From Candidatus Zixiibacteriota bacterium (GTDB lineage Bacteria > Zixibacteria > MSB-5A5 > GN15 > JAAZOE01), in contig JBDREQ010000025.1 of NCBI GenBank assembly GCA_043819555.1, positions 32,001 through 96,000 on the forward strand: a DNA stretch of 64,000 bases, given 5' to 3'. The first letter of the stretch is position 1, and every line of letters starts with the position of its first letter. Position numbers and translations under genes: made by a program. The notes beneath the pieces are model-generated. The model did not search any database. It worked only from the letters and a program-made list of their open reading frames with translations, and had not been told where the DNA came from. Of this stretch, positions 31,919 through 63,494 are shown in pieces.

Positions 31919-32473
31919 ATGAGCGAAAAGGAAATATCATCCCGGAAAAAAGGGTTTATTATTGTTTATACGGGGAACGGAAAAGGAAAGACTACGGCCG
32001 CATTGGGATTGTGCGTTCGAGCGGTTGGGCATGGGAACAAAATCGGCATTATTCAGTTTATCAAAAGTGATTGGGAATATGGAGAGTTGAAAGGATTAAA
32101 GCAATTATCACCAGCGATTGACATCCAAACGCTGGGCGCCGGATGTATCGGGATAATGGGCGATGAGAAGCCTTTGGAAGAACATAAAAAGGCGGCGAAT
32201 AAGGCGTTGAATGCGGCAATCAAAGTGGTTCAGTCGGAAAAATATAATATATTGATACTGGATGAGATTAATGTGGCAATTAATCTTGGATTAATAACGA
32301 CGGATCAGGTTATGGAATTTTTGAAAAATAAACCGGCACATTTGAATATCGTATTGACGGGTCGAAACGCTCCGGCTGAATTAATCGAGGCCGCCGATCT
32401 GGTGACTGAAATGAAAGAGATAAAACATCCTTTTCAAAAAGGCATCCCGGCTCGCAAAGGAATTGATTTTTAA
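31919..32473 (+). CDS. cobO: Cob(I)yrinic acid a,c-diamide adenosyltransferase (CobO/BtuR)
   Basis: YTGNGKGKTTAALG, QFIK, ILDEI, TGR.AP, ADLVTEM..IKHP motifs. Confidence 0.93.
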   Translation: MSEKEISSRKKGFIIVYTGNGKGKTTAALGLCVRAVGHGNKIGIIQFIKSDWEYGELKGLKQLSPAIDIQTLGAGCIGIMGDEKPLEEHKKAANKALNAAIKVVQSEKYNILILDEINVAINLGLITTDQVMEFLKNKPAHLNIVLTGRNAPAELIEAADLVTEMKEIKHPFQKGIPARKGIDF

Positions 32474-53518: not shown

Positions 53519-54730
53519 ATGGGACTATCAGGAAACCTAAAAACAGTATCGTTTTCCGATGTACTGCAATTGTTGTCAACAGGGAAGAAAACAGGCGTAC
53601 TTACAGTAGCAATGGGTGCGCGCAAAAAAGAAATCGCATTCTCTGGAGGCAATATTATAAGCGCCATCTCAGTGAACGCGAATGAGGATCTACTGGGAAA
53701 TTTGCTTTTAAAGCGTGGAAGAATCAATAAGAAAGATCTGGAGCGAGCAATTTCATTGCATAAATCTTCCGGCCGTGCTTTGGGAGCTACTCTTATTGAT
53801 ATGCAATTGTTTGACAAAGACGAAGTTTCCGAATGTTTGCGGATGCAAATCGAAGAAATTGTCTATAATCTTTTCAGCTGGGTCGATGGCGAATTTTCAT
53901 TCGCGGAAGGTGAATCTCCAAAGAACGCAACATTCCTGGTTAATTTGTCAACTATGAATATCATCATGGAAGGTACGCGGCGGATTGACGAATGGCTCGA
54001 AATACAAAAAGTTCTTCCGCCCAATGATATTTTATTGCGCGTCCGCTTGACTCCTAAAGTCAAAACAGAGGAAATAACGCTATCTCTTGATGAATTTAAA
54101 ATATTAACATTGATAAATGGAGAAAGAACCCTTCCGGAAATAATAGAGGTTTCTCCGGTGGGTGAATTTCCTACCTGCCGGGCATTGTATCGTCTCATTT
54201 TGGGTTCCCTGGTAGAAGGCGCCGGAAAAACCGCCAATGATAATATCGGACCGGATGAAGATGAAGAAGAAATAATCCTTGGCATTATTTTCAAACTATA
54301 CAACACCTGTTTTCTGAGGACGCGCAAAGTAATCGAGGAAGTCGTCGGGACGACTAATCCGGGGTATAGCAGGTTCATATCAAGTTTCAGGCAAGGGTTA
54401 TTGGTATTTTTCCCGGGATGTGATATGAGTACCGAGTCGGGACCGTCGCTTGAGAAATTTCTTCAGGAAGTTAAAAAAATTCCGGAAAAAGTCAGAATGC
54501 ATAGACTTCTCTCCATGTTAGAAGATATGTTGCACGAACAGCTTGAATATATATTTATGAATTTTGGATATGGAGCCTTTCGCACTGCGGTGGGAAAAGT
54601 CAAAAAAGAGATTTCCGAACCGCTGGCCATACGCCGTGAATTAGTAAAGAAATTCCGTCTTGATGATAATTTCTATTATTCCATCAAAAAGGCGGAGAGA
54701 ACTATAAAGATGATATCGGGTGACTCATGA
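53519..54730 (+). CDS. DUF4388 (PatA-N-like) domain protein with MshEN-like insert
   Basis: M.L.GNL..VS..DVLQLL...KKTG.L, LG..LL..G.I....L..A...H......LG..L and W.DG.F.F...MEG.RR.DEW. Confidence 0.8.
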   Translation: MGLSGNLKTVSFSDVLQLLSTGKKTGVLTVAMGARKKEIAFSGGNIISAISVNANEDLLGNLLLKRGRINKKDLERAISLHKSSGRALGATLIDMQLFDKDEVSECLRMQIEEIVYNLFSWVDGEFSFAEGESPKNATFLVNLSTMNIIMEGTRRIDEWLEIQKVLPPNDILLRVRLTPKVKTEEITLSLDEFKILTLINGERTLPEIIEVSPVGEFPTCRALYRLILGSLVEGAGKTANDNIGPDEDEEEIILGIIFKLYNTCFLRTRKVIEEVVGTTNPGYSRFISSFRQGLLVFFPGCDMSTESGPSLEKFLQEVKKIPEKVRMHRLLSMLEDMLHEQLEYIFMNFGYGAFRTAVGKVKKEISEPLAIRRELVKKFRLDDNFYYSIKKAERTIKMISGDS

Positions 54731-55095
54731 AGAATAAACTTGGATTGATAGGGATATTTGTGTTTACGCTAATAATGGTCGAATCGGCTTATGCCGCCGA
54801 TTTTAAGGTTCTTGGAAATGTTCCAGCCATAATCAATCTAGTGATATTGATAGGCGCCTTAGCTTGCTTATCGGTAGCGATAAAACTATTTGGGTTAGTT
54901 AAGGGCGGAGCTCTGGCCAAAGGCTGTCAAATGTGGATAATCTCGTTTATAACGCTGACAGCCGGTCAGGTTTTAATCCTCGCTCAGGAACTCAAGTTGT
55001 TCATTTTGACTTTCGATATAGCCGGGATATTGTATGTCGGAACAGTGATACTATGGCTCATCGGTCTCATGCATGCCCGCCGCGTTTTGGGTTAA
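54727..55095 (+). CDS. Small multi-TM hypothetical protein
   Basis: 122 aa, signal/TM plus 3 hydrophobic helices; its start overlaps the DUF4388 stop (ATGA). Confidence 0.7.
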   Translation: MKNKLGLIGIFVFTLIMVESAYAADFKVLGNVPAIINLVILIGALACLSVAIKLFGLVKGGALAKGCQMWIISFITLTAGQVLILAQELKLFILTFDIAGILYVGTVILWLIGLMHARRVLG

Positions 55096-55187: not shown

Positions 55188-56093
55188 ATGATTGATCGGT
55201 CAAGTATTGATGAACGGATCGCCAAATGCAGCAAAATACTGGATGAAAATCCTGGCTCGCAGATTTTTGCTGCTTTGGCTGAAGCTCTCCGCAAAAAGGG
55301 CGACCTTGATAAGGCCTTTCGCGTTTGCCAGAATGGTTTGAAAATCCACCCCGACTATGGTTCGGGCCACCTGGTGATGGCGAAAATCAACATGGATAAG
55401 GGGATGTATGATTGGGCCGAAATCGAAGCGATGAGAGCGGTCGAACTTGATGGCGAAACTCGAACAAATGAATTGCTTCTTTCTGAAATATATATTTATA
55501 AGAACGAGTTTAATAAAGCCTGCCGCCTCCTGGAAAAACTTCATGAGAGTGATCCGGGAAATGAGCAAATAAAAAAATTGCTCGAAATTGCCAGAAAAAT
55601 ACCCCTTGAACAGCATAATCAGCCAAACTCAGATTATAGTGCGCCGACTCCGCTGGTTGTCAATGCGGGCGTTTCACCGGCATCTCGGGAACGCGAACAT
55701 TCGGCTCCGGTGCAGACCATGACTCAGGAAGCCCCTCCGGTTAAATCTGATTTGAATTATAGGCAAATGTTAAGAACCCTGGTTATTACACCCGGGATTG
55801 AAGGGATATTATTAATAAATAATGACGGACTTGTGATTGAGTCCATTTGGAATGTATCGGGCGATACTGATTTGGTCGGAGCGCTGGCGGTTGAAACGGC
55901 GCGGTTTACGACTATTCAAATGCGAGAAGTAGGGTTTGGGCATTTGCAGTCGATGATGTTAGAAACACCCAAGTCATTATACTATATGGTCGGTATAAAA
56001 GGCAGGTTGCTAACAATGATATGCACTGAATCAATAAATCTCGGATCTCTTAAAATGAAATTGAGCGCTTTGCTTCCCAGACTGATGCCGTAA
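55188..56093 (+). CDS. TPR protein with C-terminal Roadblock/LC7 domain
   Basis: NP.S.IFA.LAE..RK.G..D.A...C..GL..HP.Y TPRs, Pro-rich linker and PGI.GILLI..DGLVI...GAL...NLG.LK Roadblock. Confidence 0.8.
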   Translation: MIDRSSIDERIAKCSKILDENPGSQIFAALAEALRKKGDLDKAFRVCQNGLKIHPDYGSGHLVMAKINMDKGMYDWAEIEAMRAVELDGETRTNELLLSEIYIYKNEFNKACRLLEKLHESDPGNEQIKKLLEIARKIPLEQHNQPNSDYSAPTPLVVNAGVSPASREREHSAPVQTMTQEAPPVKSDLNYRQMLRTLVITPGIEGILLINNDGLVIESIWNVSGDTDLVGALAVETARFTTIQMREVGFGHLQSMMLETPKSLYYMVGIKGRLLTMICTESINLGSLKMKLSALLPRLMP

Positions 56094-56108: not shown

Positions 56109-57080
56109 ATGGAGAAGAATATAAAAAATTTAATTCTGCTCGCATCGTTGATATTGGTTGTGATACCGATGGTAATTTTTCCCAATAAACTGGGATTGCC
56201 GTTATTGTCGGCATCGGTCTTATATTTGTTTTATGAAATGGCGTTCTACGGGATAGTACTTCATTTTTTCCGCAGGAATGTATCATTAATGACCATTTTG
56301 ATTGGCGCATCTTTAACAATGGTATTTCGCATTGGTTTGGGAGCCGCATTTGGCCTGGCCATTATAATTATGTACAGACTCGATAGCTCGGTTGCTTTTT
56401 CTCTTGGAATAGGCAAATATTTGCCGGCTATAATACTTCATGTGGTGGCAGCTCCTTATGTTTTGCGCCCGGCGTATTTGTATCTGGCATCAAGTTTAAC
56501 CCCGGAAAAAATGCCAAAGAAATTTGTCTTTGAACCCCATATAGAAGCAAAGGAAGTAATCTCCCCCGAAGTAAACGAATCTATTATGAAATTGCAGAAG
56601 AAGAATTTTAATGAAATAGATGCTGAAAAGCAGGCCTTTGAAGTTACATCGATTCCACATGGGGACGGCGATAATCAGCTGGAGCGGGCAGTACAATATA
56701 TTGGAGAATCAGCCGCGGTTAAAATGTCGCTTCTTATAGATGAAGAAGGTCTTACGCTCGCCAGATTTAGTCGTTGCGAAGAGGACATAGAATTGTGGGC
56801 TCCAGCCGCGATTGTCATTGAAAAAGAAAATCGAAGATTATTGAATCGTTTCAGTCCGATTGGAGAACCCAGTAAGCTGGATATAACGGCTCATGATAAG
56901 CGCATTATTTTGCGTCGGATAGAGAGATTGACTTTAATGATTATGGCAGAAGAGAATATTGACGAGACCATTCATATTAGAATGGCGCAGGCTGCGGATA
57001 TGATAAAAAAATATATCAATGCACGATACAGCCCGGCAATGTTTGCCAGGGTGGAGGAACAATATGTATCAAATTCTTGA
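56109..57080 (+). CDS. Multi-TM membrane protein with C-terminal Roadblock/LC7-like domain
   Basis: About 4 N-terminal TMs, then V..SLLIDEEGL.LA, a Roadblock beta-hairpin motif. Confidence 0.65.
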   Translation: MEKNIKNLILLASLILVVIPMVIFPNKLGLPLLSASVLYLFYEMAFYGIVLHFFRRNVSLMTILIGASLTMVFRIGLGAAFGLAIIIMYRLDSSVAFSLGIGKYLPAIILHVVAAPYVLRPAYLYLASSLTPEKMPKKFVFEPHIEAKEVISPEVNESIMKLQKKNFNEIDAEKQAFEVTSIPHGDGDNQLERAVQYIGESAAVKMSLLIDEEGLTLARFSRCEEDIELWAPAAIVIEKENRRLLNRFSPIGEPSKLDITAHDKRIILRRIERLTLMIMAEENIDETIHIRMAQAADMIKKYINARYSPAMFARVEEQYVSNS

Positions 57081-57414
57081 GGGATTAAACAAGACGAGCG
57101 GAATAATCGGAAGTATGGTAGTTGGGAGCGATGGAATTGTGATCGCGGCCGATCTCAATACGCAGATTGAAGAAGACGCGATTGGCGCCCTGGCTGCATC
57201 GATTATTTCCAATGTACAGAAATCGCTCGATCGTCTTCAATCACCGCCACTGAAACAGGTTACGGTGGAAGCTGACAATGCCAAATTATTTTTCAGTGAG
57301 GTAGAAATGGGTGTTTTGGTAGTTATTACCGAACCGGAAGTTAATATTGGTTTAGTTCGGCTTGAAATCAAAAACGCGACAAGTAAATTAAACAATCAGG
57401 AAGCAGTTTGTTAA
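57064..57414 (+). CDS. Stand-alone Roadblock/LC7 protein (MglB/MglC-like)
   Basis: G.IGSMVVGSDGIVIA...GALAA...NIGLVRLE. GGAGGA SD before ATG 57064; the ORF track starts at 57019. Confidence 0.85.
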   Translation: MYQILEGLNKTSGIIGSMVVGSDGIVIAADLNTQIEEDAIGALAASIISNVQKSLDRLQSPPLKQVTVEADNAKLFFSEVEMGVLVVITEPEVNIGLVRLEIKNATSKLNNQEAVC

Positions 57415-57424
57415 GAGATAATAC

Positions 57425-58585
57425 ATGGTATCAATAAATTACGCATCGAAAGAGGTTAGTTGCAAAATCGTTTATTACGGCCCCGGGTTATCGGGTAAAA
57501 CGACCAATTTGCAATATGTCCATGCGAAGGTACCTTCCAATACGAAGGGTAAATTGATTTCGCTGGCTACAGACGCCGATCGGACCCTGTATTTCGATTT
57601 TCTGCCGATAAATATTGGGAAAATTAATGGTTTTGACGCCAAATTTCAGCTCTATACAGTTCCCGGACAGGTTTATTACAACGCCACGCGGAAACTTGTT
57701 TTACGGGGAGCAGATGGTGTTGTCTTTGTGGCCGATTCGCAACCGGATAAACGGGACGAAAATATTGAATCGCTTAATAATCTCAAGGAAAATCTGGCAG
57801 AGTATGATTTTAAGATCGAGGAGATGCCGTTTGTCATTCAATATAATAAGCAGGACCTGCCGGGAGTTTTTAGCGCCGAAGAGCTTCATGCCTTTCTTAA
57901 TACAGGCAATTGGCCGGAGTTTTGTGCTTCGGCGACAGAGGGCTTTGGCGTATTTGATACATTAAAGTGTATCTTGAAACTTGTTCTGGATAAGGCAAAA
58001 TCGGCAGGAAATGTTACAAAGCCCGCCCAATCTGCCTCAATTCAGACTGCACCTCGAGCTACTTTTCAAACGTCTCCTACTCCAATTCATCAGCCAGAAG
58101 TACCTCAGGTGTCACAACCAGCACCGTTTGCTCAACCAAGACCGGCACCGACTTCTATGGTCCCGGATCAGCCGGTACAGACGATACCACGGCCGGTCAC
58201 TCCGGCAGCATCCATGATTCAAGATACGAAACGCCCCTCAGAACAGGTTGCGCGGCCAAATTTGGAGTCGGATGAGCCTGTTGAACGACCAGCTGTATTT
58301 CAGCGCGAGCCGGTTGAGCAAAATAATGAAAAAGCCCCGTCATACGAAGCGAATTACCGGCCTTTTCCTGGTAATACCGCTGATGATGAAAAACGCATGC
58401 AATTTTCTCATCAAAAACAAAGCGTCAATTCACATATAACTAAAGCCGAAACTTACAATCCGAGCATCGGGGATGAAGATAAGAATCATTCTTCACATCC
58501 TCAAATGGCGCCATCGCTGCGCGCTGAATCGACCGAAAAGCCCAAAAAGCGGTCATTCTTTAAGCGCTTGTTTGGATTAAAATAA
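57425..58585 (+). CDS. mglA: MglA-family small GTPase with long Pro/Gln-rich C-terminal extension
   Basis: INY...E..CKIVYYGPGLSGKTTNL (G1), DRTLYFDF (intrinsic Arg finger), TVPGQ (G3) and NKQD (G4). Confidence 0.93.
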   Translation: MVSINYASKEVSCKIVYYGPGLSGKTTNLQYVHAKVPSNTKGKLISLATDADRTLYFDFLPINIGKINGFDAKFQLYTVPGQVYYNATRKLVLRGADGVVFVADSQPDKRDENIESLNNLKENLAEYDFKIEEMPFVIQYNKQDLPGVFSAEELHAFLNTGNWPEFCASATEGFGVFDTLKCILKLVLDKAKSAGNVTKPAQSASIQTAPRATFQTSPTPIHQPEVPQVSQPAPFAQPRPAPTSMVPDQPVQTIPRPVTPAASMIQDTKRPSEQVARPNLESDEPVERPAVFQREPVEQNNEKAPSYEANYRPFPGNTADDEKRMQFSHQKQSVNSHITKAETYNPSIGDEDKNHSSHPQMAPSLRAESTEKPKKRSFFKRLFGLK

Positions 58586-58601
58586 AGGGGAGGAAATTCC
58601 C

Positions 58602-59090
58602 GTGAGTGATGATAGTCTGATATTATATGAGGAAGAGATCGAGCGGATTGATTCTTTATTGACCAAGTTATTAAAAGGAGCGGAAGCGAAATGCGCCCTA
58701 TTGGTTGATAAGGATGGCCATCTCATCACGCGCCAGGGTTTTACGCACTCCCTGGATACAACCGCGCTGGCGGCACTTCTGGCCGGCTCGTTCGCTTCAA
58801 CCAAAGAGATTGCCCGATTGGTTGGTGAATCAGAGTTCTCGGTCCTGTTTCATCAGGGCAAAAAAGACCATATCCACATGTCTATCGTGGGAGAACGTTC
58901 GATAATGGTTGTGATTTTTGATGATCGCACCACGATAGGAATGGTGCGCCTGTACGCCAAGGAAGCATCGGAAGAATTAGCCAAAGTGTTTGCGCAAATA
59001 ATGGATCGTCCTCAAGAGGATCATCCGGAAATGTCAGCCGATTTTGCAGCTTCGGCGGGCGATAAACTGGATGATATATTTAAGGATTGA
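58602..59090 (+). CDS. mglB: MglB Roadblock protein (GAP) with acidic C-terminal helix
   Basis: L..YEEE, LVDK.G.LI, DTT.LA.L.AG, EF...FH.G, VVIFD.RT..G.VRL and C-terminal LDDIF; closely matches Myxococcus MglB as recalled. Confidence 0.9.
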   Translation: MSDDSLILYEEEIERIDSLLTKLLKGAEAKCALLVDKDGHLITRQGFTHSLDTTALAALLAGSFASTKEIARLVGESEFSVLFHQGKKDHIHMSIVGERSIMVVIFDDRTTIGMVRLYAKEASEELAKVFAQIMDRPQEDHPEMSADFAASAGDKLDDIFKD

Positions 59091-59247: not shown

Positions 59248-60945
59248 ATGTCCGCTGAATTAGGAACCATGCTGGTAAAGGCCGGCAAAATTTCCGAAGA
59301 TCAATTGGAAAAAGCGCTGGCCATGAAGGAGCAGAATAATGAATATTTTGGCGAAGCCCTCGTCAAAGTAGGAGCCATTGGCAGCGAAGAAGAGCTCTCC
59401 CATTTTATCAGCAAGCAACTGAATATGGGATCTTTGCGTCTTGCCGACGTAGAGTTAAATCCGGAAGTTGTCGCCCTGATTCCCAATGATATTGCCCGCA
59501 AATTTAATGTCATAGCCGTTTCAAAACTCAAGAAAATTCTTATTGTCGCGATTGCAGACCCTAATAATGTTTATGTTCTTGACGCTATAAAATTCATTAC
59601 CGGCTGTAATGTACAGCCGGTAATTTCTCCAGAAAACGCCATCACCAAGGCGATTGAAAAATATTATCGTTCAGATAGTGGGGTTAGCGCCATCCTCAAA
59701 GGTCTTGAAGACGAGGATGAACTTGAGGTTGTTTCTGTTTCCGACGAAGAGCTCAGCGAAATGGACTTGCAGTCGGCGGTTCAGGACAAACCATTGGTTC
59801 GCCTGGTCGATTCGATTATCAAAGAAGCCGTTCGCACCGGGGCCTCTGATATTCATATCGAAATGTACGAACGACGGATTCGCGTGCGCTATCGAGTCGA
59901 TGGCAACCTTAAAGAGATGGATCCTTTGCCGTTCAAATATCGGGCAGCAATTATATCTCGCATAAAAATCATGGCGGATCTGGATATTTCCGAACGGCGT
60001 TTACCTCAGGATGGGCGCATAAAAATTAAGCTCGACAATCGTACTGTTGACCTTCGTGTTTCCGTTTTGCCGACTATTTTTGGTGAGAAAGTGGTTATGC
60101 GAATTTTGGATTCGAATGCTTTAATGGTTGATATGACCAAACTCGGTTTTGCAAAGAACTCGCTGAAGCGATTCGATAACGCCATTCATTTGCCATATGG
60201 AATAATTCTGGTGACCGGGCCAACCGGTTCAGGTAAAACGACTACTCTTTATTCGGCTCTGAAGCAGATTAATACCGAGGGTATAAACATAATGACTGCC
60301 GAAGATCCGGTTGAGTTTAACTTTGACGGGATCAACCAGATCGCTGTCAAGTCGGACATCGGTTTGACATTTGCCAAAGCATTGAGGTCTTTTTTGCGGC
60401 AGGACCCCGACGTGATAATGGTCGGTGAGATTCGAGATAGTGAAACAGCGGAAATAGCCATCCGAGCGGCATTAACCGGGCACTTAGTTTTCTCGACTCT
60501 GCATACCAATGACGCTCCCTCATCGATAAACCGGCTAATTGATATGGGTATTCCCAACTACCTGGTATCTTCAGCAACGCGGTTGATTATGGCTCAGCGT
60601 ATGACGAGGAAAATTTGTATCAATTGCAAGAGGGGTTATACTCTCACCGATGAAGATATACAAAACCTTGACGTTCCCGAACACCTTATCACAACCCGGG
60701 ATATTTTTGAATCTCCCGGCTGCAATGATTGTAACGGAACCGGCCAATCGGGCCGTACCGGTATATATGAAGTTATGCCGGTTTCAGAGGTGATTGAAGA
60801 CTTGATTTTAAGAAGAGCAACTGATATTGAAATTCGCAATAAGGCAGTTGAAGAGGGGATGCTGACATTGCGCATGGCCGCCGTTGATAAGCTAATGAGC
60901 GGCTTAATCAGTCTCAAAGAAGTCTTTGCCGTAACTGGTACTTAG
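59248..60945 (+). CDS. pilB: Type IV pilus assembly ATPase PilB
   Basis: ASDIHIE, R.PQDGRI, GPTGSGKTTTLY, LRQDPD.IMVGEIRD, TGHLV.STLHTN and Zn-binding CxxC twice. Confidence 0.95.
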   Translation: MSAELGTMLVKAGKISEDQLEKALAMKEQNNEYFGEALVKVGAIGSEEELSHFISKQLNMGSLRLADVELNPEVVALIPNDIARKFNVIAVSKLKKILIVAIADPNNVYVLDAIKFITGCNVQPVISPENAITKAIEKYYRSDSGVSAILKGLEDEDELEVVSVSDEELSEMDLQSAVQDKPLVRLVDSIIKEAVRTGASDIHIEMYERRIRVRYRVDGNLKEMDPLPFKYRAAIISRIKIMADLDISERRLPQDGRIKIKLDNRTVDLRVSVLPTIFGEKVVMRILDSNALMVDMTKLGFAKNSLKRFDNAIHLPYGIILVTGPTGSGKTTTLYSALKQINTEGINIMTAEDPVEFNFDGINQIAVKSDIGLTFAKALRSFLRQDPDVIMVGEIRDSETAEIAIRAALTGHLVFSTLHTNDAPSSINRLIDMGIPNYLVSSATRLIMAQRMTRKICINCKRGYTLTDEDIQNLDVPEHLITTRDIFESPGCNDCNGTGQSGRTGIYEVMPVSEVIEDLILRRATDIEIRNKAVEEGMLTLRMAAVDKLMSGLISLKEVFAVTGT

Positions 60946-61172: not shown

Positions 61173-62249
61173 ATGGTAACGTTGAGGGATCTTCTCCAGG
61201 AAATGGTCAAGATGGGGGCCTCCGATTTACATCTTACGGTTGGTATTCCACCCATGGTAAGAGTGGATGGAAATTTAGTACGAATGGAGCACGAGGTTTT
61301 AACCGCTGAAATGACATTGAAGCTGGCTTACAGCATCATGAATGAAAAACAGCGGAAGAAATTTGAAGAAAACAATGAACTGGACTTGTCGTTTGGCCTT
61401 GAGAATTTGAGCCGATTTCGCTGTAATGTATTTCGTCAGCGCGGTAATATTGCCGTCGCATTGCGGCAAATTCCCTTTAAGATAAAAACTTTTGAAGAAC
61501 TGGGATTGCCGAAAGTTGTTTCCGATATGGCCAATTTACCACGTGGCCTGGTTCTTGTTACCGGTCCGACCGGTTCAGGAAAATCGACTACTCTGGCCGC
61601 AATGATTGATAAAATCAATCGCGAGCGGCATGAGCATATTTTAACTGTTGAAGATCCGATTGAGTATTTACACCGACACAATAATTGTCTGGTAAATCAA
61701 AGAGAAGTTTTCAGCGATACGCCGTCATTTGGTTCGGCTCTAAAATACGCGTTGCGTGAGGATCCTGATGTAGTCCTGGTCGGTGAGATGAGAGATTTGG
61801 AAACAATTGAAGCGGCATTAAATATTTCAGAAACCGGCCACCTTGCCTTCGCGACGCTGCATACTAACTCGGCCGCCGAATCGATTAACCGCATCATCGA
61901 TGTATTTCCGACCAATCAGCAGGAGCAGATACGAGTTACCTTATCTTTCACATTGCAGTCGGTTATCGCCCAGCAATTAGTTCCGCGCATGGGCGGCGGA
62001 CGAGTATTGGCGATGGAAGTGATGGTTTGTACACCCGCCATTCGCGCGATAATTAGGGATGATAAGATACATCAAATATATAGTATGATTCAGTCAGGAC
62101 AGAAATACGGGATGCGAACGATGAATATGTCTCTGGGCGAATTATACCGTACTGGAAAAATAACCCTGAATGACGCGACAGGGCGCAGTTCCAATCCGCA
62201 GGAATTGACAGAGCTATTATCGAAACAGCCATCGCCCGCATTTGCATAA
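61173..62249 (+). CDS. pilT: Type IV pilus retraction ATPase PilT
   Basis: ASDLHL..G.PP, GPTGSGKSTTLAA, EDPIE, ALREDPD..LVGEMRD.ET and AIRAIIR (AIRNLIRE-like). Confidence 0.96.
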   Translation: MVTLRDLLQEMVKMGASDLHLTVGIPPMVRVDGNLVRMEHEVLTAEMTLKLAYSIMNEKQRKKFEENNELDLSFGLENLSRFRCNVFRQRGNIAVALRQIPFKIKTFEELGLPKVVSDMANLPRGLVLVTGPTGSGKSTTLAAMIDKINRERHEHILTVEDPIEYLHRHNNCLVNQREVFSDTPSFGSALKYALREDPDVVLVGEMRDLETIEAALNISETGHLAFATLHTNSAAESINRIIDVFPTNQQEQIRVTLSFTLQSVIAQQLVPRMGGGRVLAMEVMVCTPAIRAIIRDDKIHQIYSMIQSGQKYGMRTMNMSLGELYRTGKITLNDATGRSSNPQELTELLSKQPSPAFA

Positions 62250-62261
62250 GGAGTAAATGGT

Positions 62262-63458
62262 ATGCCGGAATTTGAATATAAAGGTAAGACCCTGGCCGGG
62301 GTTCAAGTCAGCGGTACGTTAAAGGCCAAAAATCAGCAGGATATGGAAAGAATTCTCAGGCAGAATAGGATCCTGGTTTCCAATATTCGCAAAAAACCGA
62401 CTGATATCGCGATTAAATTCGGTACCGGAATAAAAAAGCAGTCCATTTCCCGCTTCACTCGACAATTTGCGACCATGATCGGCGCTGGTCTGCCAATGAT
62501 ACAATGCCTGGAGATTTTGGCTTCTCAGGTTGAATCGGTTGAGCTGCGCAAAGTTCTATACAAAGTCAAGGAATCAGTCCAGGGTGGTACGACTTTGGCC
62601 GACGCGTTGGCCCGCCATCCTAAAGTTTTTGACCAGCTTTATACTAACATGGTTGAGGCCGGCGAGATGGGTGGCGCTCTTGACGTAATTCTTGTTCGGT
62701 TGGCGGTTTATCGTGAAAAAGCCGACGCCCTGGTGCGCAAGGTTCGCGGGGCGATGATGTATCCGATTGTAATCAGCGTCGTGGCTACCGGCGTTACAAT
62801 TGCCATGTTAACTTTCGTAGTGCCTGTGTTTGCCAAAATGTTTGAAGGCCTTGGATCGGAATTGCCCGGACCTACTCTGGTCATTTTGGGAATATCGAAT
62901 TTTCTGGGATCAAAATTCATGTATATCATAGGCGCCATAATCGGTCTAATTGTTAGCTATAGGCTTTACGTCAAAACGCCCAAAGGCCGTTATAATGCCG
63001 ATAAGTTTTTTCTGGCGTTTCCGGTTTTGGGAACGCTTCTCAAGAAATCCGCGATTTCAAGGTTCGCACGTACCCTGGGAACCTTGCTCTCATCGGGTGT
63101 TTCGATTCTGGAAGCCCTTGATATTACCGCTAAAACGGCCGGTAACAGGGTTATTCATGATGCTATCAAAAAATCAGTGATATCCATTGCCGAAGGTGAT
63201 ACAATTACCGCCCCGTTGAAGGAAACCGGTGTTTTCCCTCCGATGGTAACGCAGATGATCTCGGTCGGTGAAAAAACCGGCGGATTGGATGAGATGCTCA
63301 ATAAGATAGCAGATTTTTATGATGAAGAAGTTGATGCCGCGGTAACGGCCCTGACATCGATTATTGAACCGGTGGTTATTGTATTTATGGGTGTGATAAT
63401 TGGTGGTATTTTGATTGCGATGTATTTACCTATGTTTGATATAATAGGAAAAATCTAA
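62262..63458 (+). CDS. pilC: Type IV pilus inner-membrane platform protein PilC (GspF family)
   Basis: FTRQ.ATMI.AG.P, AGE.GG.LD..L.RLA, A..YP, GE.TG.LD.ML.KIADFY and MYLPMF motifs. Confidence 0.95.
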   Translation: MPEFEYKGKTLAGVQVSGTLKAKNQQDMERILRQNRILVSNIRKKPTDIAIKFGTGIKKQSISRFTRQFATMIGAGLPMIQCLEILASQVESVELRKVLYKVKESVQGGTTLADALARHPKVFDQLYTNMVEAGEMGGALDVILVRLAVYREKADALVRKVRGAMMYPIVISVVATGVTIAMLTFVVPVFAKMFEGLGSELPGPTLVILGISNFLGSKFMYIIGAIIGLIVSYRLYVKTPKGRYNADKFFLAFPVLGTLLKKSAISRFARTLGTLLSSGVSILEALDITAKTAGNRVIHDAIKKSVISIAEGDTITAPLKETGVFPPMVTQMISVGEKTGGLDEMLNKIADFYDEEVDAAVTALTSIIEPVVIVFMGVIIGGILIAMYLPMFDIIGKI

Positions 63459-63465
63459 GCGGGTT

Positions 63466-63494
63466 AGGCGGGCCGGCCGGCCCGCCTTTTTTTT
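63466..63494 (+). terminator. Intrinsic terminator after pilC
   Basis: AGGCGGGCCG-GC-CGGCCCGCCT followed by a T tract. Confidence 0.8.

Follow-up and report, generated by a model that had tools for sequence, protein, structure and literature searches.

The 64,000-nucleotide stretch analysed here (the window; positions 32,001–96,000 of contig JBDREQ010000025.1, assembly GCA_043819555.1, from a Candidatus Zixiibacteriota bacterium) encodes on its forward strand, at positions 57425–58585, a homologue of MglA. MglA is the standard example of a Ras-like polarity switch in bacteria; in the model organisms it is a small, soluble protein brought to the pole by its partners. The product of the window's mglA gene, 386 residues followed by a stop codon, is composed of an N-terminal G domain (residues 1–196), a predicted disordered linker (residues 197–373) and a C-terminal peptide (residues 374–386) that resembles the membrane-targeting sequence of Escherichia coli MinD. 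The properties of this tail and its persistence in related proteins suggest that the GTPase is tethered to the inner membrane.

The reading frame contains no internal stop codon and ends 16 bases 5′ of the GTG start of the next gene; its product is the only MglA homologue in the source genome, which is estimated to be 97% complete. The G domain (57425–58012) has Arf as its sole Pfam match (5e-8). Residues 3–196 align end to end with the Myxococcus xanthus MglA structures 6h17 (E value 4.5e-76), 5ymx and 6hjh (about 5e-76), and with Thermus thermophilus MglA 3t12 (E value 2.9e-69). These solved chains are 195–203 residues long and have nothing past the G domain, in agreement with the description of a typical MglA, in an earlier note on this DNA, as a protein of about 195 residues without an anchor. 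Since the structural alignment stops at residue 196, the tail starts at about residue 197 and comprises 190 residues, slightly displaced from the domain end near residue 190 and the tail of about 180 residues that the same note had given.

The P-loop GPGLSGKTT occupies residues G19–T27, as read from the translation, and the NKQD motif residues N141–D144; the catalytic equipment of the domain is complete. Group-1 MglA proteins are defined by a TVPGQ sequence instead of DxxGQ at G3 and by an Arg finger beside the G2 threonine (PMC4316618, accessible portions). Both features are found here, the former as T78-V79-P80-G81-Q82 and the latter as R53, which adjoins T54 and aligns, as does T54, with the equivalent residue of 6h17. 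The group is also recognized by coupling to a gene for MglB, a Roadblock/LC7 protein, and in the window Robl_LC7 genes lie on both flanks of mglA. At 386 residues, the protein exceeds the size considered in the 2014 MglA census, which left out sequences longer than 240 residues (PMC4316618). The G domain belongs to group-1 MglA, and the overall architecture is a variant of it: the M. xanthus and T. thermophilus proteins, alike in the G domain, TVPGQ motif, Arg finger, MglB gene and link to type IV pili, end where the G domain ends, whereas the Zixibacteria protein adds a 190-residue tail with an anchor-like peptide.

The terminal peptide and the linker

The last 13 residues, KKRSFFKRLFGLK (58544–58582, with the stop codon at 58583–58585, exactly as the earlier note had placed them), make up a putative membrane-targeting sequence, in which a polybasic patch precedes a predicted amphipathic helix and the net charge is +6. 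Residues F378, F379, L382 and F383 define a hydrophobic i, i+1, i+4, i+5 pattern, flanked by the basic segments K374–R376 and K380–R381 and by K386; the targeting sequence of E. coli MinD has the same pattern. AlphaFold2, run on the 386-residue protein with a 59-row alignment, predicts the terminal helix at residues 378–382, with block values of the predicted local distance difference test (pLDDT) of 68 for residues 371–380 and 77 for residues 381–386.

The source genome contains no MinD above the TIGR01968 cut-off (best score 73.7 bits, against 212.9 required), so the comparison was made with MinD of E. coli K-12, whose C terminus, read from NC_000913, is ...EEEKKGFLKRLFGG. The two termini are identical at 7 of 11 aligned positions, or at 8 of 11 where a homologue has G at position 377, as many do, and share KK, F and KRLFG in addition to the hydrophobic pattern, which bears out the likeness to KKGFLKRLFGG first noticed from the sequence alone. 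Of the genome's 16,634 stop-to-stop frames with 60 or more residues, just one ends in a strict MinD-type motif, namely this mglA; together with its conservation in homologues, this places the likeness beyond chance. Loose versions of the MinD-like motif end two more frames of the genome, which encode adenylosuccinate lyase and an amino-acid permease with a fused Usp domain; in the lyase the motif lies within the folded ADSL_C domain and is probably a chance match.

MinD, FlhG and VirC are anchored to the membrane by a C-terminal amphipathic helix (bioRxiv 10.64898/2026.10.19.760177, accessible portions), and the MinD peptide KGFLKRLFGG has served, in two tandem copies, to tether a heterologous protein to the membrane of E. 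coli (PMC5471200, accessible portions). The MglA peptide occupies the same extreme C-terminal site, with the core KK-R-S-F-F-K-R-L-F-G in place of KK-G-F-L-K-R-L-F-G in MinD. The carrier differs, being a Ras-like (TRAFAC) GTPase rather than a ParA/MinD ATPase, and the deviant Walker A ATPase fold of that family (TIGR01968) is absent. A long disordered linker also separates the helix from the fold, to which it is attached directly in MinD, and the MglA terminus is the more basic of the two (net charge +6 versus +2 in the last 13 residues). To judge from its sequence, the peptide is a functional look-alike of the MinD targeting sequence, not a member of its family.

The linker (58013–58543) is rich in Pro (15.8%), Ala, Gln and Ser (9.6% each), followed by Glu (7.9%) and Thr (7.3%), and hydrophobic residues account for 17.5% of it, compared with 36.7% of the G domain. 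In an alignment of 120 homologues the G domain is nearly invariant and the linker columns are unconserved, with the exception of three islands of conservation in the tail: Y-R-P-[FY]-P-G (residues 311–316), P-x-M-A-P-S-L-[KR] (residues 359–366) and the terminal peptide. AlphaFold2 renders the linker as coil with block pLDDT values of about 44–61, except for one predicted helix (residues 319–333; 58379–58423; block pLDDT 78–81) located directly 3′ of the first motif, and the model supports a disordered tail in broad terms only. According to a scaling law for random coils, the ends of the 177-residue linker would lie about 10 nm apart, and the contour of the chain would measure about 64 nm. A span of about 10 nm would be compatible with reaching the cytoplasmic parts of the pilus machine.

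The Y-R-P-[FY]-P-G motif (58355–58372) retains its R, both P and G in 120 of 121 alignment rows and is restricted to the order to which the window belongs, being absent from 14 of 15 representatives of distant families, the fifteenth of which has a loose RPVPG. The P-x-M-A-P-S-L-[KR] motif (58499–58522; P359 in 117, M361 in 118 and P363 in 120 of 121 rows) sits 8 residues N-terminal to the polybasic patch and recurs in looser variants, for example P.M..S.K, in other Zixibacteria families. Both are probably docking sites for proteins of the surrounding gene module. The presence within the order of two invariant tail motifs besides the terminal one indicates that the tail is more than a passive leash. 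A complex prediction of the G domain (residues 1–196) with the tail (residues 300–386), made without controls, scored 0.00 in both runs and neither supports nor opposes docking between them. A correlation of the YRPFPG motif with a gene for a fusion of TPR and Roadblock domains upstream of mglA was considered and rejected, as the gene is present in all five distant families that lack a clear motif.

Conservation and relatives of the tail

The earlier note had let its proposal depend on whether orthologues keep the terminal motif while the linker varies, and they do so. Among the 120 best homologues (212–676 residues, several of them named Zixibacteria GTPases), a KKR[SG]FFKRLFG[LI]K-like end is recognized in 119 by eye and in 116 by a fixed regular expression. 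A search made without a word index found an MglA homologue in 272 of 285 Zixibacteria genomes, including 196 of the 198 of high quality; the two families without one are represented by three genomes and one genome (0/3 and 0/1). The tail itself was followed in 45 loci from 16 families and in 6 complete loci from two further families (f3 and f4), and all 51 complete MglA genes from these 18 families have a tail with a polybasic aromatic terminus. Two apparently tail-less Zixibacteria MglAs, frames of 203 and 313 residues, were rejected as candidates, both being truncated by contig ends.

When the last 18 residues were required to carry a net charge of +3 or more and to include four or more large hydrophobic residues and two or more Phe or Trp residues, all 45 loci from the 16 families qualified, compared with 87 of 2,176 long frames of the genome (4%). 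The net charge of this segment ranges from +3 to +10 among the 45 relatives. The six f3 and f4 loci, judged by eye, end in ...GFF[KR][KR][LM]FG.K. In distant families the termini drift, to ...GFFSRLFGLFKK, ...FFLFRWFKKSKKS, ...SLFSRLFGWLFGR and ...KFWWRWIRKIVDRR, and retain their polybasic, aromatic and amphipathic character; MglB (63–88% identity across loci) and PilB (59–88%) are conserved while the tail terminus drifts. The tail varies from 127 to 280 residues across the 45 loci, and the linker from Pro/Ala-rich to Glu/Lys-rich between families. No MinD above the TIGR01968 cut-off was found in the 285 Zixibacteria genomes by a search that was positive in six named control genomes.

Relatives outside the phylum were sought among 1.84 billion cluster representatives (50% clusters), ranked by similarity to the G domain alone. 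The best 150 representatives (54–79% identity) are all long, at 255–717 residues, and have the G domain at the N terminus. Fixed rules assigned 40 of their tail ends to a basic amphipathic class and 12 to a transmembrane-helix class, leaving 98 in neither; by eye, about 17 of these 98 are amphipathic and one is transmembrane, and the rest have other motifs or a beta-rich domain. The MglAs of the transmembrane type retain TVPGQ and R-T and carry a single terminal hydrophobic helix after basic residues, and their clusters include one Candidatus Schekmanbacteria record.

The genomes of named species were searched with the transmembrane forms as query, and the best 80 loci consist of 57 short canonical, 8 transmembrane, 8 amphipathic and 6 other long forms, and one that is cut. 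The short MglAs (190–199 residues) are labelled Gemmatimonadota, Desulfuromonadales, Myxococcota, Thermoanaerobaculia and others. The transmembrane loci are all labelled Planctomycetota (8/8), and the amphipathic ones Zixibacteria, Ignavibacteria and Brocadiia, plus one record with only the label 'uncultured bacterium'. A group of Chitinivibrionales, Chitinispirillaceae and Fibrobacter sp. proteins ends in ...KRPVNPK....GFLSKFFNKD, with the hydrophobic pattern in 99 of 105 termini. Mapped on a FastTree phylogeny of 250 G domains, tail type requires 27 changes, where shuffles require 122 on average, and the query falls in a well-supported set with 45 amphipathic rows and 2 others; the tree, quickly built, unrooted and based on a short conserved domain, shows clustering rather than the number of origins.

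Other long-tailed relatives have different ends. Some possess a beta-rich C-terminal domain and end in ...RRAA, others end in a ...DSPFIDLQPFRGVD motif, and a relative labelled Fibrobacter ends in ...IELRPYVPKKK, without the amphipathic helix. One long-tailed relative contains a FliMN_C domain (PF01052).

Proposed membrane tethering and its alternatives

The arrangement is best explained by a group-1 MglA tethered through its C-terminal peptide to the cytoplasmic face of the inner membrane, a reading that we infer from sequence and to which we assign a probability of about 0.7. It is preferred because the most widely kept features of the tail are the extreme C-terminal position of the peptide and its basic-amphipathic chemistry, and because the nearest alternative found at that position is a transmembrane helix. 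Three observations point to the membrane and support this reading: the basic and aromatic character that persists in the terminus, its replacement by a transmembrane segment in relatives, and the use of the MinD peptide as a transplantable tag. On anionic lipid, the terminal peptide would fold into an amphipathic helix whose aromatic face inserts in the bilayer while Lys and Arg residues bind phospholipid head groups, confining the G domain to roughly 10 nm from the membrane. The tethered G domain would cycle between its GTP and GDP forms under the control of the adjacent MglB-type Roadblock protein, acting as a GTPase-activating protein (GAP), and would act on the co-transcribed PilB/PilT/PilC pilus motor. 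Binding is probably reversible, as one MinD-type helix is weak alone; the polybasic patch, together with clustering of the protein at the pilus machine, would strengthen it.

Several points weigh against a tether. When the last 13 residues were shuffled 10,000 times, 3,401 of the products (34%) reached the helical hydrophobic moment of the MglA tail (0.49 in the best 11-residue window, compared with 0.48 in MinD), so that amphipathicity by itself is not significant. The terminal helix spans five residues in the AlphaFold2 model, at moderate confidence, and the model as a whole has a mean pLDDT of 61, with low confidence extending to residues 17–92 of the G domain. Because the published MinD tag used two tandem copies, a single copy on a monomer may bind weakly. 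The 120 homologues, like the proteins of the Chitinivibrionales-type group, were ranked through shared words, which favours proteins with the same terminal motif, and they are kin, so that their counts are not independent. With 98 of the best 150 representatives outside the anchored classes, long MglA tails also serve other ends, and the source organism belongs to an uncultured lineage.

The terminus could instead be a docking peptide. In FtsZ, a globular GTPase continues into a disordered linker and finishes with a conserved C-terminal peptide, through which it plugs into a partner, and the outline of the MglA architecture is similar; the partner here would be a protein of the pilus machine or a Roadblock protein. 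The peptide sequence is almost invariant within the order, as docking peptides often are, and the two other conserved tail motifs are most simply understood as docking sites. Across families, however, only the basic and aromatic character of the terminus is kept, although the candidate partners encoded in the operon are conserved. Related MglAs have a transmembrane helix at the same place, and 7 to 8 of 11 positions match a peptide proven to bind lipid. On balance, docking as the function of the terminal peptide is unlikely.

A slightly less probable alternative is that the anchor is gated by the nucleotide state in the manner of Arf and Sar1, with the tail helix or one of the motifs held on the G domain and then released to the membrane. 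Arf-type GTPases, including those of Asgard archaea, bind membranes in a GTP-dependent manner through their own amphipathic helix, membrane binding having been shown for an Asgard Arf by liposome flotation (PMC11914678, accessible portions), and AlphaFold2 confidence is higher in residues 311–333 and in the terminal helix than elsewhere in the tail. In Arf and Sar1 the helix is N-terminal, packed on the core and coupled to the nucleotide switch, whereas the MglA helix is C-terminal and remote, with a disordered stretch of about 177 residues, variable in length, between it and the G domain. Such a long, disordered and length-variable linker provides no fixed geometry for coupling to the switch, and the transmembrane-anchored relatives would be unable to leave the membrane.

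It is improbable that the basic terminus binds a different polyanion (DNA, RNA or polyphosphate) or that the Pro/Gln-rich tail drives the formation of a condensate at the cell pole. The charge of the last 13 residues, and that of the last 18 in the relatives, would suit the former, and the low complexity of the linker the latter. The lipid-binding helix of MinD nevertheless has the same aromatic i, i+1, i+4, i+5 pattern and subsequent Gly as are conserved here, and replacement by a transmembrane segment in relatives fits a membrane target only; the change in linker composition between families argues against a specific condensate grammar. That the tail is an artefact of non-coding read-through, a frameshift or a mis-assembled contig, for which no support was found beyond a first impression of tail-less copies given by the two seemingly short forms in related genomes, can practically be dismissed, given an open frame in register with the operon, full-length homologues in 272 of the 285 genomes, a terminal motif conserved in frame, contig ends at both short forms, and an RNA-library contig that spans 58419–58635 with one synonymous difference.

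The proposed membrane tethering of this MglA has parallels in several known systems. In eukaryotic Ras and Rab proteins a hypervariable region leads to a lipid anchor, as in the polybasic tail of K-Ras4B, and a polybasic patch helps the binding of acidic lipids. The Zixibacteria MglA is likewise a small GTPase with a variable, flexible C-terminal region and an anchor-like element at the very end, but its putative anchor is a peptide helix and its linker is about ten times longer. No cysteine occurs in tail residues 197–386, and the absence of a CAAX box or terminal cysteine excludes prenylation; the comparison with Rab and Ras drawn in the earlier note holds for the design and fails for a lipidated terminus.

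Among bacterial relatives, SofG of M. xanthus has extensions and depends on bactofilin. The PilB and PilT ATPases are positioned by this GTPase of the MglA family (PMC4316618). Unlike SofG, the Zixibacteria MglA has no N-terminal extension (its P-loop begins at residue 19), is encoded next to MglB and is the sole MglA homologue of its genome. The Group II MglA2 proteins described by Fremgen, Burke and Hartzell in 2010 (PMC3000849) are similarly long homologues with an unexplained C-terminal part, for which the accessible portions of that paper propose no function, anchor or motif; the examples listed there have no MglB partner, whereas the Zixibacteria MglA adjoins one.

In the openly accessible literature covered, no description of a membrane anchor on MglA was found. 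The two further invariant tail motifs and the absence of MinD above the cut-off from the Zixibacteria genomes are also new. If whole phyla use MglA tethered, permanently or reversibly, to the inner membrane, membrane-confined small-GTPase signalling, a hallmark of eukaryotic Ras, Rab and Arf, would be a common bacterial solution too, and models of polarity and of the pilus motor in these lineages would need to include diffusion in two dimensions and a reach that depends on the length of the linker. The proposal offers a simple, directly testable peptide and better names for thousands of database proteins: in the homologue listings most entries are unnamed, and those with a name are mostly called 'signal recognition particle receptor subunit beta', 'GTPase' or 'hypothetical protein'.

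A broader scenario is doubtful as a whole. Anchoring of MglA-type GTPases by disordered tails might be widespread and have arisen several times, through an amphipathic helix in Zixibacteria and in Fibrobacterota of the Chitinivibrionales type and through a transmembrane helix in Planctomycetota and Schekmanbacteria, and the Zixibacteria tail motifs might bring in the operon's three or four Roadblock proteins to build a membrane platform controlling the type IV pilus motors. The same logic is seen in eukaryotes in LAMTOR1/Ragulator with the Rag GTPases.

The surrounding pilus module

The mglA gene is part of a module on the forward strand in which the order of a Roadblock protein, MglA with its tail, an MglB-like Roadblock protein and PilB is kept in all 45 loci across the phylum. 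The Roadblock/LC7 gene directly upstream of mglA (57019–57414; Pfam Robl_LC7, 2.4e-11) holds its position in 45 of 45 loci, and its true start may be an internal ATG. The MglB-like Roadblock gene, 16 bases downstream of mglA (58602–59090; Robl_LC7, 1.4e-13), encodes a product that matches the NCBIfam MglB model NF052242 over 1–160 of its 161 positions at 2.2e-28, under the cut-off of the model; from its sequence and place, it is the likely GAP for MglA. It is followed by pilB (59248–60945; TIGR02538, 687.7 bits, above the cut-off), pilT (61173–62249) and pilC (62262–63458), a set of type IV pilus motor genes with T2SSE and T2SSF matches, and a PilS-like gene also lies downstream in the window. 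Counts in a scan for promoters and terminators were not above those in shuffled sequence; the only strong terminator-like site on the forward strand is located at 63466–63487, past pilC.

Upstream, a gene at 55188–56093 encodes a 301-residue fusion of TPR and Roadblock/LC7 domains, assigned by domain matches, which brings the Roadblock-domain proteins of the module to at least three. It is found 1–2 kb upstream of mglA in five of five distant families. The next gene (56109–57080) encodes a 323-residue polytopic membrane protein without a Pfam or NCBIfam match; several hydrophobic segments lie in its N-terminal part, and its C-terminal half, of about 170 residues, is cytoplasmic. It lies directly upstream of the Roadblock–MglA pair in 43 of 45 loci and may be a membrane partner of the module. 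A Roadblock fold in its C-terminal half was considered and rejected, as BLASTP gave no alignment to the neighbouring Roadblock protein and Pfam no match at E ≤ 5.

The RNA-library contig, 217 bases long, comes from a groundwater metatranscriptome library and runs from the last part of the tail through the stop codon into the beginning of mglB. Its single difference, at 58567 in the codon of R381, is synonymous, and the contig shows presence in the library, not transcription. The same run contains a second short contig (58776–58962); the other two runs contain nothing from the locus, and the rest of mglA is uncovered. Ahead of the module, from position 53519, the forward strand encodes a 403-residue DUF4388 protein (1.1e-32), whose 3′ end is overlapped by 4 bases by an open reading frame of 122 residues made up almost wholly of hydrophobic segments, the pair extending over 53519–55095.

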